Part shown: piece after piece, positions 10,524-56,317 of the stretch
Position numbering within the stretch: the stretch's first letter is position 1
How the letters are laid out: each line of letters starts with the position of its first letter
Source of the DNA: Alphaproteobacteria bacterium
GTDB taxonomy: Bacteria > Pseudomonadota > Alphaproteobacteria > SHVZ01
DNA: 64,000 nucleotides
Assembly (NCBI GenBank): GCA_041906305.1
Contig: JAYRJL010000007.1
Location: forward strand, 196,042 to 260,041
Direction of reading: 5' to 3'
The notes under the pieces: generated by a model
Seen by the model: the letters and a program-made list of their open reading frames with translations, nothing else
Told to the model about the DNA's origin: nothing
The model's database searches: none
Program-made: the position numbers and the translations under genes

Positions 10524-10577
10524 TCGAGCCTGGGAAAGGGCGAGGTGGGACTGGAATTCGAGTATGGTGGCTATGAA

Positions 10578-10609
10578 ATGTCAATTCTGGAATCTGTGAT
10601 GTCAGAATC
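10578..10609. promoter_or_regulatory. candidate operator in the GntR / ubiX divergent region
   Basis: Direct repeat ATGTCA (10578-10583 and 10599-10604). Inverted repeat ATTCTG-N13-CAGAAT (10584-10608). Two GANTC sites (10590-10594 and 10605-10609). Confidence 0.35.
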
Positions 10610-10648
10610 CCCATTGCGCCGGCGGGCACCCTTGGGCCATGTGAGCCG

Positions 10649-20965: not shown

Positions 20966-22363
20966 TCAGTCGTCGGCAGCGATCGCGAGCGTGCGGCTCG
21001 CGGTCTTGCGTGCCGGCTTCGCTGCATTTTGCGACTTCACCGGTGCCAGGACCAGGTCCACGAGCGCGCGGGCATCGGCCTTCGGCCGGTCCATCGCCAT
21101 GGCCTCGGCGAGGATCTTCTCCGTGCGAGCCTTGCCGAGCACGACCTCGGTGGTGAGGCGGTACTTGGCGACTATGCCGTCGGCGCCGAGCGGCCGCTCG
21201 GGATCGCCGAGCGCTTCGGTCGGCTCCGATTTCAGCACGCGTCCGTCCTTGGTGGTCAGCGTCACGCGCGCGATCCGGCGGGCCGGAAACTCGGCGGTCA
21301 ACTTCAGATCCTCGGTCAGGTCGATGCCGCGCGAGAGCTTCAGCACGCGCGGATCGGTCAGGCCCTTGCCGTCGACCTCGCGGGCGGTGACCTTGCCATG
21401 GACGATCGCCACGGCGACCGGGAAGGGGAGGCTGTACTGCGCCTCCTCGGTGGTCTTCGGCGCGCGGGTCGCGAGACGGACCGCGTTGTGGAAGGTCTCG
21501 ACCTTGATCTTGGCGATGTCCGCGCCCTTTACGCCGTGCTTCTTGAGCAGCCCGAGGCTGGCCGTGATCGGCGGCTGGGCCCAGCGGCAGACCGGATAGG
21601 GCTTGAAGTACATCTCCATGATCCGCCAGCGCTTGCCGAGGTCGCGCCAGAGATCGGCGACGTCGTCGCCCTCCCAGACCAGCGCCGGCGCGCCGGTGAA
21701 CCCGGCCTTGGCCAGCAGTGCCGCGCTGACGCCGGCCATGGCGCCCCAGCCGGAGCCGTCCTTCACCATGGTCGGGAAATCGATGCAGCGCATCATCTGA
21801 CTGCGGGGACCGTGATACTCGGCGATGCCGAGCGCCTCGCGGGTGAGAGCCGGGGAGAGTTTCATCCAGCGCGCCATGACCGCGGCGGCGCCGAGCGAGT
21901 TCCACGATCCGGAGGTGTGATAGTCCTTCGCCGTCCGGTGGGTGGCGATCCCGGCGCGGATCGCGATCTCGTAGCCGATGATCAGGCTCACCAGGAACTC
22001 GCGGCCGGAGATCTTCTTCTGAGGGTCGCAGAGGGCAAGCAGGGTCGGCAGGATCGCGACGCCGGCATGGCCCTTGGTCAGCACATGGCCGTCATGGGAG
22101 TCGAAGGCGTCGATGGTGATGCCGCCGGCCATGGCGGCGCCGGCCGGGCCGACCTTGCGGCCGTCCAGCATCAGGCGGACGGCGTTCTTGCCCGCCCCGA
22201 AGGTCTCGACCGCGTGGTCGCGGATGATCCGCGACATGGCCGTCTCGCTGCCGGCCGCCGCCGCGCCGATGAGGTCCACGAGGCAGAGCTTCGCCTGCTC
22301 GACCACCTTCGCCGGAAGGTCGTCGAACTTGAGCTTGTGGATGAAGTCCATCGGCGCGGGCAT
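20966..22363 (-). CDS. MmgE/PrpD family protein
   Basis: 465 aa. PrpD-family layout: N-terminal FIHKLKFDDLPAKVVEQAKLCLVDLIG, plus HAGVAILPTLLA and YFKPYPVCRWAQ. Confidence 0.88.
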   Translation of the reverse strand: MPAPMDFIHKLKFDDLPAKVVEQAKLCLVDLIGAAAAGSETAMSRIIRDHAVETFGAGKNAVRLMLDGRKVGPAGAAMAGGITIDAFDSHDGHVLTKGHAGVAILPTLLALCDPQKKISGREFLVSLIIGYEIAIRAGIATHRTAKDYHTSGSWNSLGAAAVMARWMKLSPALTREALGIAEYHGPRSQMMRCIDFPTMVKDGSGWGAMAGVSAALLAKAGFTGAPALVWEGDDVADLWRDLGKRWRIMEMYFKPYPVCRWAQPPITASLGLLKKHGVKGADIAKIKVETFHNAVRLATRAPKTTEEAQYSLPFPVAVAIVHGKVTAREVDGKGLTDPRVLKLSRGIDLTEDLKLTAEFPARRIARVTLTTKDGRVLKSEPTEALGDPERPLGADGIVAKYRLTTEVVLGKARTEKILAEAMAMDRPKADARALVDLVLAPVKSQNAAKPARKTASRTLAIAADD

Positions 22364-22367
22364 CGGG

Positions 22368-23714
22368 TCAGCTCCAGGGGAACGGGCTGTTGGAGACCGG
22401 GTGAAGCTTGCCCTCGGGGAAGCGGGAGATCCGGAACGGCTCGAGCAGTCGGCTCTTGGTGCCGCTGACGATCTCGCCGGCTGCGAGCTTGCCGACCGCG
22501 ATCATCTTATAGCCGTGGTTGGAGTCGGCGAGGATGTAGACGTTATCCCGGAAGACATCGAACACCGGGAAGCTGTCGGGGGTGAAGCATCCGAGGCCGC
22601 CCGAGGGCTCGTGCTTCCATTTGTGCGCCTGGCCGGAATAGCGCTTCTGGCAGAAGGCGAGCGCCGAGGTGAACATGTGCGCGAAGTTCTGGTCGACGAT
22701 GAATTCAGGCGAATCAGGGCCATAGGGATCGATCTTCACCTCGTCTACCGGCGTCTCGACCTTGTACGGCATGGCGCCGCCCTGGATGCCGTTGAAGTTG
22801 AAGTCGGGCTTGTAATAGATGCCCCAGAGCTTGTCGGTGATGAGGGAGCCGTCCTCGTCCGAGTGGAGCGGCGCGTCGGTATCGACGTGCATGACCGGGC
22901 CCATCTTGCCGTCGTTCATGAGGCCGTATTTGGGGTCGACGCCGAGGGTCCCTTCCTCCAGGCACCAGTAGGTCCACATGCCGACGCCTTTGTGGGTCTT
23001 GCCGTCGCGGCCCTTGATGTCGACAGTCTTCGGCAACTCCAGCATCCGCCAGACTTGGTTGATCCAGGGGCCGACACCGACCACCACGAAGTCGCACTCG
23101 ATCGTGCCGCGGTCAGTCTCGACCGCCGAGACCGCCTTCGAGTTCGAGGCGAACTTGAAGCCGGTGACCTTGGTCGGGGCGACGATCTGGACGCCCTTGG
23201 ACTCCGCCTTCTTGGCGAGCCCGTACATGGAGGCCCGGTTGTTCGCGTAGCCGCCCTTCTTCTCGTGCAGGACGGAGGTGATGCCCTTGGCCTGCCAGTC
23301 GTCGAACAGGCCCTTCATATACTTGGTGCAGTCGGCCTCGCCTTCAATGAAAACAGAGTCGTAGCCGATGTCTTTCTGCTGCCGGGCGATCTGCCCGACA
23401 TTCTCATGCATCACTTCAGGAGAGATCTGCATGTAGCCGACCGGGTGGTAGGAGAAGGCCTTCGGGTCCGACTCCCAGACCGACACGCATTCGGCCATCA
23501 GCTCGCGCATTGCCGGCTGGAAGTAGTTGTTGCGGATCACCCCGCAGGCGATGCCCGAGGCGCCGGCGGCGATGCCGACCTTGTCGAGGATGACGATGTC
23601 CTTGCCAGATCCCTTGCCCTTGGCTTCGAGCTCGCAGGCGAGGTGGTAGGCGGTCGATAGACCGTGAACGCCGGCTCCGATGACGACGTACTTGGCTTTG
23701 GCGGGAAGGGACAT
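22368..23714 (-). CDS. FAD-dependent oxidoreductase (DAO family, sarcosine-oxidase-beta/opine-oxidase-like)
   Basis: 448 aa. Dinucleotide fold KYVVIGAGVHGLSTAYHLA. GAGGAA SD upstream. 4-nt gap to the downstream PrpD-like gene. Confidence 0.88.
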   Translation of the reverse strand: MSLPAKAKYVVIGAGVHGLSTAYHLACELEAKGKGSGKDIVILDKVGIAAGASGIACGVIRNNYFQPAMRELMAECVSVWESDPKAFSYHPVGYMQISPEVMHENVGQIARQQKDIGYDSVFIEGEADCTKYMKGLFDDWQAKGITSVLHEKKGGYANNRASMYGLAKKAESKGVQIVAPTKVTGFKFASNSKAVSAVETDRGTIECDFVVVGVGPWINQVWRMLELPKTVDIKGRDGKTHKGVGMWTYWCLEEGTLGVDPKYGLMNDGKMGPVMHVDTDAPLHSDEDGSLITDKLWGIYYKPDFNFNGIQGGAMPYKVETPVDEVKIDPYGPDSPEFIVDQNFAHMFTSALAFCQKRYSGQAHKWKHEPSGGLGCFTPDSFPVFDVFRDNVYILADSNHGYKMIAVGKLAAGEIVSGTKSRLLEPFRISRFPEGKLHPVSNSPFPWS

Positions 23715-23792
23715 CTCATTCCTCTGGTAAGCGGGGAGATCATCTCACGTCGCGGACGGGGTCCGTACCTGCCGCAAAACGACCGGCATCGG

Positions 23793-25466
23793 TCAGAAGG
23801 CGGCGACGCCGCCGGAGCGCGCGTCGCTGGCGGGGACCAGTCCATCGGCCGTCCGCCACACCGCCGAGGGGCGGCCGAAGCTGGTCGGCAGGCCGACGCC
23901 GTCGACCAGCCGGACCCGATGGCCGAGGGCCGTCAGGCGATCGATCACGGCTTGGCCGGTGCGGCTGTCGACCTCGAGATCGTCGCCCTCCGTGTGAATG
24001 CGCGGAAGGTCGATAGATTGTTGAGGATCAATATGATGATCGAGATAATTAATAGTTAAATTTAGAATTGCAGAGGGGATGCGATAGCCTCCCGAGCCCG
24101 CGATCCCGCCGATCGACCGGCCACTTTCGCGGAAGATCGCGACCGGGGCGGCGTAGAGCGGCATGCGTCCTGGCCCGACCGAATTGGCCTGGCCTGGGCG
24201 TGGGTCGAACCACTGCATCGCATTGCCGAGGAAGACCCCGGTGCCGGGGATCATGACCAGCGAGCCGAAGGCGCTGCCGAGGCTGGTGATCAGGCTCGCC
24301 ATGTTGCCGTCGCCGTCGGCGCAGACGATCTGGGTCGTGCCCTCGAAGGGCGGCGGCGGGACGGACGGGGTCGACCCCTGGTGAGGCCACGGGTTGCCCG
24401 GCTCGACCTTGGTCCTCGCCTTGTCGGTCCGGATCAGGGCGGCCTGCGCCGCGGCGAACGCCTTGCTGGCAAGACCCTCGAGCGGCGCCTTCAGGTGCCT
24501 GGGGTCGGCGGCATGGGCGAAGTTGTCGGCGAAGGACTGGGCGAGCGCCTCGGCGACCAGGTGCCGGACCTCGCCCCCGTGCGGGTCGAGGGCGCCCAGG
24601 TCGAACCGCTCCAGGATGTTGAGCGCCTCGACATAGATCAGGTCGCCGCAGGTGACGTAGTCGCGGCCGCGGTAGTCGTACCAGGGCTGGAGGAAGGTGT
24701 CCGGCCTGTAGCCGGCGAGGTCCTCGGCGGTCAGTAGGCCGCCGGCCTCCTTCATCTCGCGGTCGATCGCCTGAGCGAGCGGGCCGCCATAGAAGGCGGC
24801 GGCACCCTTCTCGGCGATGGTCTCCAGGGTCCGGGCCATGTCCGAGAAGTCAAAGCGGTGGAAGGCGCCGCCGGCATTGGCCGGTCGGGGCGGGGCGTCG
24901 TCGGGGAGCAGCCATTTCGCCGCCTCGGCATACTGCCTGATCTCGACCGTTCGGCCGGCGACCGAGGCGGTCAGCTTCGGGTCGGCGACGACGCCGGCGC
25001 GGGCGAGGTCGATCGCCGGGCCGACCAGGACCTTCCACGGCAGCCGTGCGAAAAGCCGGTGTGCCTCCCAGAGGCCAGCGATGGTGCCGGGGATGCCGAC
25101 CGAGAGATGGCCCGTCGTGTTGATCGCGCCCTCGACGCCGCCCCAGCCGGCGTTCCGCCACTTGGCCAGCGCCTTTGTGTACATCTCCGGCGTCGCCGCC
25201 TTGGGCGCGCGGATGAAGTGGTCGATGCCGACCGCCTGGTTCGTCTTCGAGAGATAGACCGACATGCGGCCGTGGCCGCCGATGCCGCACATCTGCGGCT
25301 CGACGACGAAGGAGGCGAAGGCGCCGGCGATCGCCGCGTCGACCGCATTGCCGCCCTGGCGGATGATCTCGACGCCGACATCTGCCGCGGTCTGGTGACC
25401 GCAAGCGACAGCGCCACGTGCGCCGCTGATCGGCGTGCGACCGAGGATGACCGAGCCTGGACGCAT
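23793..25466 (-). CDS. gamma-glutamyltranspeptidase-family Ntn hydrolase, leaderless (GGT-2)
   Basis: Track ORF 23793..26999 trimmed to ATG 25464-25466 (MRPGSVILGR...), which shares 1 nt with the GGT-3 stop; 557 aa. Blocks QGGNAVDAAIAGAF, Thr nucleophile context FEGTTQIVCADGDGN, and oxyanion SGGYRI. Confidence 0.9.
   Translation of the reverse strand: MRPGSVILGRTPISGARGAVACGHQTAADVGVEIIRQGGNAVDAAIAGAFASFVVEPQMCGIGGHGRMSVYLSKTNQAVGIDHFIRAPKAATPEMYTKALAKWRNAGWGGVEGAINTTGHLSVGIPGTIAGLWEAHRLFARLPWKVLVGPAIDLARAGVVADPKLTASVAGRTVEIRQYAEAAKWLLPDDAPPRPANAGGAFHRFDFSDMARTLETIAEKGAAAFYGGPLAQAIDREMKEAGGLLTAEDLAGYRPDTFLQPWYDYRGRDYVTCGDLIYVEALNILERFDLGALDPHGGEVRHLVAEALAQSFADNFAHAADPRHLKAPLEGLASKAFAAAQAALIRTDKARTKVEPGNPWPHQGSTPSVPPPPFEGTTQIVCADGDGNMASLITSLGSAFGSLVMIPGTGVFLGNAMQWFDPRPGQANSVGPGRMPLYAAPVAIFRESGRSIGGIAGSGGYRIPSAILNLTINYLDHHIDPQQSIDLPRIHTEGDDLEVDSRTGQAVIDRLTALGHRVRLVDGVGLPTSFGRPSAVWRTADGLVPASDARSGGVAAF
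24015..24074 (-). other. AT-rich rare-codon island inside the GGT-2 coding sequence
   Basis: 20 consecutive in-frame codons, 19 ending in A/T. 16 G/C of 60 nt by hand count. The reading frame is intact and the peptide aligns with its paralogues. Confidence 0.85.
24021..24049 (+). promoter_or_regulatory. sigma70-like promoter motif, antisense to GGT-2
   Basis: TTGAGG (24021-24026), 17-nt spacer, GATAAT (24044-24049). Motif match only; no downstream plus-strand gene is supported. Confidence 0.3.
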
Positions 25467-27175
25467 CAGCACGCGGCCGCCGCGGAAGCCCAGGCGGGGC
25501 CCGAGCCGGCGCGCATCGAGCCGTCCTTGGCGACGGTGATCGCATTCACGCGGCCGAAGGCGTTCAGGCCTGGGGACTCGGTCTGCGTTACGACCTTGTG
25601 GCCCATCTTGGCGAGGCCATCGCGGACCTCGGCCGGGATGCGGCCGTCGATATAGGTCTCCTGGCCCTGGCAGTGGATGCGGGGCGCGTCGACCGCCGCC
25701 TGGGGGCCCATGCCGAACTCGGTCGCGTAGAGGAAGGCGTGCAGCACGCCGGTGGTGATGCGGTAGCCGCCCGAGCCGCAGCCGGCGAAGACGGCGCGGC
25801 CGTCCTTCTCGGCGACCAGCGAGGGGGCTGCGAAGATCGGCATCTTGCCCGGCCTGATGCAGTTCGCCTGGTCGGGGCGCGGGTCGAAGTTCTGCATCGA
25901 GTTGTTCAGGATCACGCCGGTGCCCGGGACGATCATCAGCGAGCCGAAGCCGCTGGTGAGGCTGGTGATGAGAGCGCAGACGTTGCCGTCCGCATCGGCC
26001 GAGGCCATCTGGCTGGTGCCGGCAAGCTTGGCGATGCCGGGCTCGTTGGCGATCCGCGTCGGCCGCTCGGCCGAGTTGTCGTAAGGCCAGGGATCGGCGG
26101 CGGCGACGGGGCGGGGGAGCGCGCGGTCCATGCGAAGCTGCTGGGCGCGCATCTTCCCGAACTCGGGGCTGGCAAGGCCTTCGACCGGCGCCCGCTCGTA
26201 ATCCGGATCGCCGTAATGCGTCATGCTGTCGATGAAGCCGCAGGCGAGCGCTTCGGCGACCAGATGGCGGAAGGCGAGACTGTCCTTGCCCATGCCCTTG
26301 AGGTCGAAGCACTCGAGGATGTTGAGTGTCTCGTAGGTCACCTGGTCGTAGCAGGTGTTGGTGTTCATGCCGCGATAGCGCGTCGGCTTCTCTTCGAGGA
26401 TGCGGGTCTTGTAGGCGCCGAGGTCGGCGGCAGTCAGGATGCCGCCCAGGCCCGTGACATGGCGCTCGATCGCTTCCGCGACCGGGCCCTCGTAGAAACC
26501 GGCCGCACCTTTTTCGGCGATGCGCCGGATCGTCTTCGCGAGATCCTTGCCGTCGAGGCGGTCGCCGCCGCCGGCGAGCTGGCCCGCGGCCTTCGGCGGC
26601 AGGTTGTTCCGCAGCAGCCACTCGGCTGTCGTCGGCAGTGCCTGGATCGCGGCCAGCCGCTCCGAGATCGGCAGCAGCAGCTGCCAGGTGACCTCGATGC
26701 CGGCCTCGGCCTCGGCGATCGCCGGCTCCAGCACCTTGGCGAGCGGAAGCTTCCCGAACATGCGGTGCGCGTCGCAGAGGCCGGCGACCGCGCCTGGTAC
26801 CGCCGGCGCCAGCGGACCCTGCTCGGCCTTCATGCCGACCGTGTAGGGAAAGCCGTAGTACTTGTTCGGCTTGGTGCGATCGATCTCGAACATGTCCGGC
26901 CGCGCCGCACCCGGTGCCCGCACATAGTGATCGAAGGTGACGAACCGCTTCTCGCGGCCGAGCCAGACGGCGAGGTGGCCGTAGCCGCCGATGCCGCATG
27001 ACGCCGGCTCGACGACGAAGCCCACGAACGCCGCCGCGACCACCGCGTCGATCGCATTGCCGCCGGCCTCGATCATCGCGATGCCGGCCGCGGCCTCGGC
27101 CGGATGCCCTCCGGTGACGACGCCGCGCGCACCCGCGACCTCGGTGCGGGTCGCGACCATCTGGCTCTGGATCAT
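25466..27175 (-). CDS. gamma-glutamyltranspeptidase-family Ntn hydrolase, leaderless (GGT-3)
   Basis: Track ORF 25466..28900 trimmed to ATG 27173-27175 (MIQSQMVATRT...), ATGA overlap with the ATPase stop; 569 aa. Blocks AGGNAIDAVVAAAF, LAGTSQMASADADGN and GSGGYRI. Confidence 0.9.
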   Translation of the reverse strand: MIQSQMVATRTEVAGARGVVTGGHPAEAAAGIAMIEAGGNAIDAVVAAAFVGFVVEPASCGIGGYGHLAVWLGREKRFVTFDHYVRAPGAARPDMFEIDRTKPNKYYGFPYTVGMKAEQGPLAPAVPGAVAGLCDAHRMFGKLPLAKVLEPAIAEAEAGIEVTWQLLLPISERLAAIQALPTTAEWLLRNNLPPKAAGQLAGGGDRLDGKDLAKTIRRIAEKGAAGFYEGPVAEAIERHVTGLGGILTAADLGAYKTRILEEKPTRYRGMNTNTCYDQVTYETLNILECFDLKGMGKDSLAFRHLVAEALACGFIDSMTHYGDPDYERAPVEGLASPEFGKMRAQQLRMDRALPRPVAAADPWPYDNSAERPTRIANEPGIAKLAGTSQMASADADGNVCALITSLTSGFGSLMIVPGTGVILNNSMQNFDPRPDQANCIRPGKMPIFAAPSLVAEKDGRAVFAGCGSGGYRITTGVLHAFLYATEFGMGPQAAVDAPRIHCQGQETYIDGRIPAEVRDGLAKMGHKVVTQTESPGLNAFGRVNAITVAKDGSMRAGSGPAWASAAAAC

Positions 27176-56068: not shown

Positions 56069-56317
56069 GAGCCTTTGACCATGACGGAAAAACGAAAACG
56101 CCGGGCGCTCGACTGAGCCCCGGCCCCTGGAGGGATATTCTAGGCGGCGGCAAGGCCAGGGGAAACGGGAAATCGGCTCCGGGTTCCAGGTGCGGACTTG
56201 CTTAAAGGTCTATTGTATTGATTTTAATGAAAATACGATGAATATCGCCCCAGGCTCGACCGCATCCGGGGCACATGCTAGGGAGCCAGGAAAAATAACG
56301 CCCTGTGGAGGAGCCTC

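Follow-up and report, generated by a model that had tools for sequence, protein, structure and literature searches.

A short stretch inside a gamma-glutamyltransferase gene (GGT-2) of an alphaproteobacterium forms an island of AT-rich, rare codons whose composition is conserved among related bacteria. The island arose in situ, by point substitutions in the common ancestor of a set of Alphaproteobacteria from fresh water and wastewater. Its AT-richness has been kept by most descendants, increased in the sub-clade that includes the sequence studied here and lost in two lineages, and it has pulled the encoded helix toward amino acids whose codons are rich in A and T. Because the same codons are AT-rich in relatives and the encoded amino acids have shifted, the coding sequence probably conceals a regulatory signal here. 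As to how it works, our best explanation is a tentative one: an old element of about 60 to 80 bp, preserved by selection on its nucleotides, lies within the small-subunit coding sequence and would act at the DNA level. With modest confidence, it may resemble a promoter in function, bind a nucleoid protein that prefers AT-rich DNA, or do both.

The window, by which we mean the whole 64 kb of DNA that was analysed, holds no other intragenic island of this kind, as a preliminary description made from the sequence had claimed. The codons reported there for positions 24015-24074 are exactly those present, 19 of the 20 minus-strand codons end in A or T, and a base count gives 16 G/C in 60 nt. Sliding-window plots of GC and codon adaptation, which that description had proposed as a check, place the island lowest on both scores. 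It is the GC minimum of the 64 kb for windows of 40, 60, 80 and 100 nt; the 60-nt window at 24013 (24013-24074 region) has 25% GC compared with a mean of 67.3% (sd 5.8). The next-lowest windows (56185, 10556, 20738 and 13309) are all intergenic, most of them between divergent genes. Plus-strand C drops to 5%, the minimum of the window, and the CAI-like score over the 20 codons, 0.089, is the lowest among 36 genes and 14,121 codons, for which the mean is 0.756 (sd 0.144). AT content far above the genome average is combined with TpA steps (six per 60 nt, read from the sequence), as looked for in a nucleoid-protein site. An assembly or polishing artefact can be excluded, as a contig from the source sample is identical across the island, a contig from an unrelated bioreactor study (~95% identical) carries it with two changes, both AAT to AAC, and several MAGs likewise bear it.

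Coordinates of the genes, of the parts of the island and of the promoter-like matches (positions in the window)
Feature	Position	Strand	Remarks
MmgE/PrpD gene, after the oxidoreductase	20966-22363		
FAD-dependent oxidoreductase (DAO family), downstream of GGT-2	22368-23714	-	
GGT-2, gamma-glutamyltransferase family, 557 aa	23793-25466	-	PF01019 in all homologues
Tandem GGT paralogue, upstream of GGT-2	25466-27172	-	overlaps GGT-2 start by one base
Island, 5' extension	24054-24074	-	TCT GCA ATT CTA AAT TTA ACT
Island, conserved core	24015-24053	-	13 codons, CTT AAT TAT CTC GAY TAT CNA ATT GAT CCA CAA NNA TCT
Island, 3' fringe	23997-24014	-	ATC GAC CTT CCG CGC ATT
Sigma-70-like motif, antisense-facing, TTGAGG-17-GATAAT	24021-24049	+	-35 at 24021-24026, -10 at 24044-24049
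Second promoter-like match, TCGATA-16-TATGAT	24010-24037	+	common only to the window and L020
Third promoter-like match, TCGAGA-17-TAGAAT	24040-24068	+	similar in L004, L001, L006 and L047

The nucleophile of GGT-2 is Thr377, the first residue of the small subunit, and the small chains of PDB structures align from residue 377; TIGR00066 scores 306 bits on the protein, under its cut-off of 357.85. The island lies within a helix of the small subunit rather than at a domain boundary, several kb into the operon and close to the 3' end of the gene. On the sense strand, the oxidoreductase gene starts about 300 nt downstream of it, with 78 nt between GGT-2 and the oxidoreductase. Neither the orthologues nor the tandem paralogue require a gap when aligned with the island peptide, bearing out the earlier view that the protein is intact and that the anomaly is at the nucleotide level. 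In the paralogue, the 28 homologous codons are 73% GC, and there is no AT dip at the homologous helix. A tie between the island and the downstream gene was considered and rejected: L008, L038 and L045 have the oxidoreductase and no island, and L003 has the island with a convergent gene downstream. A search for transcripts found no RNA run containing the window. Contigs from a lake metatranscriptome, which is unstranded, belong to the island-less L038 lineage and carry GGT-2 and the oxidoreductase on one contig at even depth, a result that is uninformative on island bearers either way.

Alignment of orthologous genes at the nucleotide level, also suggested earlier, reveals that the island is conserved and not strain-specific. 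The AT dip is found at the same codons in 14 distinct orthologues from three clades, with 75-93% protein identity. It had been allowed that close relatives might carry ordinary G/C-ending codons at this position; instead, close relatives bear the island. It is absent from closer outgroups and from two inner lineages, and it was not found in any orthologue outside one clade. In every locus that has both the island and the upstream GGT gene, no 60-mer other than the island falls below 42% GC. Orthologues keep the window's A/T-ending codons at 14-17 of the 19 island sites versus 7-16 of 51 outside (Fisher p 2e-3 to 5e-7), and island-less lineages show no excess retention of such codons at the island sites. 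When all conserved A/T-third-position columns are counted, 12 of 22 fall within 21 of the 591 alignment columns (p ~2e-12).

A codon-by-codon table can be used to see where this constraint falls. At most of the 13 core codons, 12-14 of the 14 orthologues have T or A fixed in third position, and CAA and the NNA that follows it are invariant in all 14 bearers. GAT is fixed at one Asp codon and GAC is kept at the next, and the common C-ending codons CTC, GAC and CAC are maintained inside the island. Arginine is encoded only by CGA and AGA, the two rarest of its codons. In the 3' fringe, T is kept in CTT and NTT and C in GAC and CGC, while the CCN codon is free to vary. Extreme AT-richness of the 5' extension is confined to the sub-clade of the window, L001 and L004, and its amino acids differ from clade to clade. 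Synonymous-site codon identity inside the island is not above that outside, so a constraint on composition only or on codon rarity only fits equally well. At first codon positions, GC is 0.44-0.63 in bearers versus 0.74-0.89 in non-bearers, and the recurrent replacements in bearers are Ala to Ser, Arg/His to Tyr, Gly to Arg/His/Gln and Val/Leu to Ile. Since first positions are AT-shifted as well, the constraint is on nucleotides and not on synonymous codon choice alone.

The preliminary description had also listed, among possible roles, a recombination patch from a low-GC donor, a suggestion that is not supported. Clade-specific residues (D-P-Q-R-x-I-D-L-P-R) are kept and there are no indels, which makes a distant donor unlikely. 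Trees of the 5', middle and 3' parts of the gene agree, and there is no drift back toward the genome GC. Further features that do not fit an imported patch are its presence in three clades and the retention of the A/T-ending state far above the turnover in the rest of the gene. Inserted foreign DNA, such as a MITE or an IS, was rejected because there is no length change relative to island-less orthologues.

Sigma-70-like hexamers with a spacer of 16 to 18 bp occur within the island. The antisense-facing motif noticed earlier is present, with its -35 hexamer taken from CCT CAA and its -10 hexamer from AAT TAT C, and is joined by two further promoter-like matches on the plus strand. Each of the three scores 9/12, compared with 0.3 matches expected from shuffles, and the island holds three of the five sigma-70-like matches of at least 9/12 found on both strands of the whole window. 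The position of TTGNGG-17-GATAAT is kept in 9 of 14 orthologues at 8/12 matches or better, with GATAGT in four others, and it coincides with the most conserved synonymous positions. However, it matches at only 8-9/12, and A/T-ending codons for N-Y-L and P-Q generate much of the motif automatically. It is broken in L046 (AAA) and L047 (TAC), which lack the critical -11 A and both keep an AT-rich island. Downstream of it on the plus strand, no terminator, ORF or conserved structure was found for an antisense product. On the sense strand, the weak motif that had been described is indeed weak (TTAACT-18-CATATT, 8/12). A conserved sense-strand promoter for the oxidoreductase gene was rejected, as orthologues share no positionally conserved match; the island is therefore not obviously serving the downstream oxidoreductase.

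If the island works at the DNA level, it may do so as an intragenic site of transcription control. A patch of 25-45% GC in a genome of 67% GC would be DNA picked out by RNA polymerase or by nucleoid proteins of the MucR or GapR type, and the best-conserved candidate is the antisense-facing promoter TTGNGG-17-GATAAT. Firing of this putative promoter, or occupation of the site by a silencer, could then modulate read-through of the operon of ABC-transporter, GGT, GGT-2, oxidoreductase and PrpD genes. Such an element would be dispensable, since two lineages have lost the island yet keep the same operon. Downstream regulatory elements are known from enterobacteria, for example in proU/proV, where an operon's first gene contains a binding site for H-NS no more than a few hundred bp from the promoter that is silenced. 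Like them, the island is AT-rich DNA in coding sequence, but it sits several kb into its operon, near the 3' end of a gene, and binding is putative. AT-rich intragenic DNA both starts transcription and binds silencers (Singh et al. 2014, PMC3923964; Forrest et al. 2022, PMC8894471). In Alphaproteobacteria, MucR is a silencer whose recruitment grows with AT content and TpA steps (PMC8857273). Intragenic promoters silenced by H-NS-like proteins or MucR resemble the island in being much more AT-rich than the genome, in lying within a gene and in having sigma-70-like hexamers and TpA steps. They differ in that they mostly belong to whole horizontally acquired genes or islands and are deemed spurious, whereas here the patch is 60-80 bp in a vertically inherited gene and is kept by selection, its transcription or binding being putative. 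Taken as a whole, the observations can be read, again tentatively, as a regulatory DNA element built by point mutation in a vertically inherited enzyme gene, with selection overriding codon bias, about eight amino acids of the helix rewritten and the element maintained across genus-to-family-level divergence.

Several other explanations must be weighed against a DNA-level element. Of these, we consider a translational pause, raised in the preliminary description, somewhat unlikely: a conserved cluster of rare codons would slow translation once about 90 residues of the small subunit have been made and so tune co-translational folding of the precursor before autoprocessing. The codons concerned (ATT, CAA, TCT, CGA/AGA, TTA and CTA) are very rare, the island is the rarest-codon window of the 36 genes, and the exclusive use of the two rarest Arg codons also fits. 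Conserved rare-codon clusters are known in coding sequences (Chaney et al. 2017, PMC5438181). The island is like them in that host-rare codons occur at the same aligned position inside a domain and that rarity is conserved more than the exact codon, the signature described in that study. However, the AT-shifted first positions and altered amino acids would be unneeded for a speed signal and weaken the pure form of the proposal, which retains the lowest CAI-like score in its favor. Unlike the published clusters, the island is found in one clade, has been lost twice and has some sites fixed on common C-ending codons; its position within a helix, away from a domain boundary, also counts against a pause. 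In short, a run of host-rare codons and conserved rarity are both seen, and a synonymous-only signal is not. A functionless relic is less probable still, and in our judgment improbable. On this view, the ancestor of the clade gained a short patch, either by import from a relative of lower GC or through some local quirk of mutation, and the patch would now be drifting back to the genomic GC at lineage-specific speeds. Such decay could account for the patchy distribution, in which the sister lineages L006/L043 have the island and L008/L045 do not, for the resemblance of L008 and L045 to partly GC-restored versions (26-30% A/T at third positions of the island region) and for the spread of island GC among bearers (0.33-0.48). 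It is harder to reconcile with proteins of 93% identity, in which 16-17 of 19 A/T-ending codons are retained inside the island while those outside (15 of 51) are near background. The freely varying CCN codon inside the island indicates that enough time has passed for neutral sites to diverge, the most AT-rich versions occur in one young sub-clade, contrary to steady decay, and the kept clade-specific residues and absence of indels argue against a distant source.

The signal could also lie in the mRNA, which we regard as unlikely. An unstructured, AU-rich and G-poor stretch may be where RNase E, or another protein that binds single-stranded RNA, enters the message, giving differing stabilities to the upstream (transporter, GGT) and downstream (oxidoreductase, PrpD) segments. 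The predicted consensus fold leaves the island without pairing, flanked by GC-rich stems, and the tight gene spacing (the upstream overlap and the short gap to the next gene) is that of a polycistronic message. Sense-strand G is 7-14%, and T exceeds A at four-fold sites. RNase E favors AU-rich single strands even in Rhodobacter, at 67-69% GC, where decay of puf mRNA starts at AU-rich sites inside the coding regions of pufQ and pufL (PMC6238624). Both cases come from alphaproteobacteria of high GC and place an AU-rich stretch, here predicted to be single-stranded, inside an ORF of a polycistronic mRNA; the puf sites, though, are short and mapped by experiment, whereas the island is much longer. 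RNase E sites take a few nucleotides, not 60-80, and the G-poverty is mostly due to amino-acid composition, with no significant four-fold G depletion in island-less relatives. The same low G underlies a further alternative, a latent Rho-utilization site of pyrimidine-rich, G-poor RNA at which Rho would terminate before the downstream genes if translation of GGT-2 falters. In bearers, the island does have the gene's lowest G and its largest or near-largest C-minus-G skew, and the same G minimum and skew are found in the non-bearers L026, L008 and L049. This skew nevertheless reflects which amino acids make up the helix, non-bearers show no significant avoidance of synonymous G, C is reduced rather than enriched in bearers, and a run of rare codons keeps ribosomes on the site rather than exposing it. 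We therefore give a Rho site very little chance.

Overlapping signals in bacterial coding sequence are mostly statistical inferences, and clear single cases that bend a protein sequence are rare. The island is sharply bounded (60-80 bp) and extreme for its genome, and sister lineages provide natural controls with an ordinary GC-rich allele in the same operon context. It can be used as a test case for how GC-rich bacteria fit promoters or nucleoid-protein sites inside genes, for whether conserved rare-codon clusters reflect translation speed or signals at the DNA or RNA level, and for how fast such elements decay once selection is lifted. If the DNA-element reading is true, this would be a natural, datable bacterial example of dual use, a "code within the code" for which nature also offers matching alleles with and without the element. 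If the island is a plain rare-codon pause or a relic, it would be an ordinary curiosity.

Other signals were searched for in the same sequences. Inspection of the orthologue alignment by eye revealed no conserved alternative sigma-factor, CtrA, Irr/ICE, Fur, IHF or sigma-54 motif. A search of Rfam gave no match for the island at E up to 5, and a covarying structure was not seen, with a compensatory change in 1 of 39 predicted pairs and a covariation term of -0.06; a known RNA family or structured RNA was rejected on these grounds. The G-depletion was likewise dismissed as an RNA or Rho signal in its own right, being largely explained by amino-acid composition. A programmed frameshift at A-AAT-TTA was discarded, as this sequence occurs in the window only and is not conserved. 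A DnaA-box-like TGATCCACA is present in 9 of the 14 bearers, the window itself having TGATCCTCA, and is an expected by-product of A/T-ending codons on I-D-P-Q.

The AT-rich island within the GGT-2 gene reads exactly as the preliminary description gave it: the codon string is the same, G/C makes up 16 of the 60 nt, and A or T stands in the third position of 19 of the 20 codons. GC drops to 25% in the 60-mer from 24013, the mean for the window being 67.3% (sd 5.8); the GC minimum of the window falls at the island for every window size tried, and no other stretch of the plus strand has as little C. At a codon score of 0.089, against a mean of 0.756, its 20-mer is the rarest-codon 20-mer among 36 genes. 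The remaining low-GC spots of the window are intergenic, the majority between divergent genes. The next two lowest 60-mers are each flanked by divergently oriented genes, which probably share them as promoter regions; neither has a motif in common with the island. An artefact could be ruled out, since the source run contains a contig identical to the window sequence and a bioreactor metagenome from an unrelated study yielded a contig, 95% identical, whose island differs only by two AAT-to-AAC changes. Stops in all alternative frames, as found in the island, are uncommon in a 67% GC genome.

Positions of the features discussed, in the window unless an orthologue locus is named
Feature	Position	Strand	Description
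GGT-2	23793-25466	minus	gamma-glutamyltransferase family protein, 557 aa
Island	24015-24074		stop codons in all five alternative frames, both strands
Second-lowest GC 60-mer	56185-56245		33% GC
Third-lowest GC 60-mer	10556-10615		40% GC
Long shadow ORF	23664-24059	plus	terminated by island
Long shadow ORF	24049-24390	minus	terminated by island
TGATCCTCA	24022-24030		window version of TGATCCACA
A-AAT-TTA (CTA AAT TTA)	24058-24064	minus	slippery-type heptamer, in phase
GACCG-ATGC-CGGTC then GTTTTG	23760-23792	minus	hairpin directly past GGT-2 stop
Unalignable X26 alleles, island	L007:4391-4459		67 nt
Unalignable X26 alleles, surroundings	L007:4345-4539		193 nt
Split GGT-2 orthologue	L014:630-2295		two frames, broken near residue 318
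AT-rich region before GGT-2	about 2000-2500 (L026, L027, L028)		~450 nt; 60-mers at 30-42% GC
Metatranscriptome coverage	L038:1-2400		runs X23, X24, X26, X28

Orthologue DNA was gathered by exact-protein look-up and collection scans. The island is conserved rather than strain-specific: fourteen distinct orthologues, whose proteins are 75-93% identical, become AT-rich over the same codons, with an island GC of 0.33-0.48 (27 codons) against a gene-wide third-position GC of 0.79-0.89. Where a bearer locus retains the GGT gene upstream, no 60-mer other than the island falls below 42% GC in 2.7-7.7 kb, and the upstream tandem paralogue of the window has 73% GC across the 28 homologous codons. Bearers are spread over three clades; the sister pair L008/L045, L026/L038 and every outgroup (L009, L049, L029, L010 and beyond) lack the island. 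Trees built separately from the 5', middle and 3' thirds of the gene agree, and the most parsimonious history for this distribution is therefore a single gain followed by two losses. Both loss lineages carry parallel amino-acid 'reversions' (Tyr to Arg, Ser to Ala), each of which leads to GC-rich codons, as would plausibly follow from the release of an AT constraint. The island region is also a hot spot of allelic diversity in one lake sample (run X26), where several alleles align to the orthologue locus L007 on either flank and are too divergent to align over exactly the island or its surroundings. One loose end among them reads A-A-V-L-C-S-S-I-S in A/T-ending codons.

That the element exists and is ancient is well supported, as is the retention of its A/T state against the codon bias of the genome, which we read as selection. 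Other bearers also have A or T at the end of 14-17 of the window's 19 A/T-ending codons inside the island, against 7-16 of 51 outside it, even where the proteins are 93% identical (Fisher p 2e-3 to 5e-7); in non-bearers, this retention does not differ between inside and outside. Conserved A/T third positions are similarly concentrated, with 12 of 22 in just 21 of 591 alignment columns (p about 2e-12), and a freely varying CCN codon within the island indicates that neutral sites had time to change. Where the amino acid is the same, the island does not exceed the rest of the gene in codon identity; it is mostly the A/T state that is retained. Some site-specific detail is kept as well, in that one Asp codon is always GAT and the following one always GAC; among bearers, CAA and the following NNA are invariant and TAT, ATT, TCT and CTT nearly so. 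The preliminary description had allowed for recombination from a low-GC donor. This fails for a distant donor: the island retains the clade-specific residues D-P-Q-R-x-I-D-L-P-R and has no indels, and was therefore built in place.

We class the island as a nucleotide-level signal embedded in coding sequence, a kind already known. Our leading reading, held tentatively, is a DNA-level site for transcription control, which may be promoter-like, a landing pad for an AT-binding nucleoid protein, or both. Three points put it first: every codon position takes part in the AT shift, the element has a suitable length for a complete promoter or a nucleation site, and comparable DNA occurs elsewhere in the window solely as intergenic promoter DNA. 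A promoter-like site would probably be antisense-facing or bidirectional. The plus strand of the island holds three sigma-70-like matches where 0.3 are expected, and these are three of only five with at least 9/12 in the whole window, both strands. In the antisense motif first proposed, TTGAGG-17-GATAAT, the -35 does fall on CCW CAA and the -10 on AAT TAT C, the most conserved codons; it is in place in 9 of 14 bearers and reads GATAGT in four others. The -11 A is missing from L046 and L047, both of which retain the AT-rich island. No conserved sense-strand promoter was found among the orthologues, and neither a terminator nor an ORF points to an antisense product. AT-rich intragenic DNA can start spurious transcription and draw silencers (PMC3923964, PMC8894471, PMC8857273), and the island resembles it; the silenced DNA is mostly acquired, whereas the island is short, vertically inherited and conserved.

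A conserved rare-codon pause is an unlikely alternative. The island satisfies the descriptive criteria for conserved rare-codon clusters (PMC5438181) but departs from them in that its signal is not purely synonymous: first-codon-position GC is 0.44-0.63 in bearers vs 0.74-0.89 in non-bearers, and replacements recur (Ala to Ser, Arg/His to Tyr, Gly to Arg/His/Gln, Val/Leu to Ile), neither of which a purely synonymous codon-speed signal predicts. Somewhat less likely is an AU-rich RNase E or single-strand RNA site, modelled on pufQ/pufL (PMC6238624), for which the island's predicted unpaired state speaks; neither an Rfam match nor covarying structure was found at the island. A Rho-utilisation site is very improbable. 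Sense-strand G is extremely low (7-14%), but this largely follows from amino-acid composition, and synonymous G is not significantly avoided (relatives without the island). A functionless relic is improbable too, and the remaining probability goes to an explanation outside these five. Interest is moderate, and lies mainly in the natural matched alleles with and without the island.

The window is absent from all RNA runs. Matching lake metatranscriptome contigs, which are unstranded, belong to the island-free L038 lineage; at 99% identity or more, and with uniform depth, they cover GGT-2, the oxidoreductase and PrpD, one being a single 4.7 kb contig. In this lineage the operon is thus expressed in lakes and co-assembled, and the three genes are probably co-transcribed.

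Two other motifs are likely by-products or chance. In 9 of 14 bearers (L003, L004, L006, L007, L014, L020, L025, L027/L028), ATT GAT CCA CAA spells TGATCCACA, the sequence of the Caulobacter-type DnaA box, a match largely expected from A/T-ending codons on I-D-P-Q. The slippery-type heptamer, followed in the -1 frame by a stop four codons on, is confined to the window and not in L001 or L004, and is therefore probably chance.

PF01019 is present in every GGT-2 homologue; GGT-2 itself scores 306 bits against TIGR00066, under the equivalog cut-off, and Thr377 is where alignment with PDB small chains starts. Across loci L001-L047, the rate of evolution of GGT-2 is clearly above that of the genes beside it in the operon: orthologues of GGT-2 are 76-93% identical, those of the oxidoreductase (22368-23714 in the window) 91-98% and those of the upstream GGT paralogue (25466-27172) 82-96%. 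The C-terminal 100 codons of GGT-2 are the most variable. The split in the L014 orthologue stems from a frameshift, which would make the gene a possible pseudogene, or from faulty assembly. The island of this orthologue is intact and has 27% GC. In L026, L027 and L028, the GGT paralogue before GGT-2 is missing, and the AT-rich region found there is probably GGT-2's own promoter region. Past the GGT-2 stop, the 78-nt spacer before the oxidoreductase gene holds a second hairpin of 5 bp; both hairpins score under the terminator-scan threshold and could act as a weak attenuator or stabiliser.
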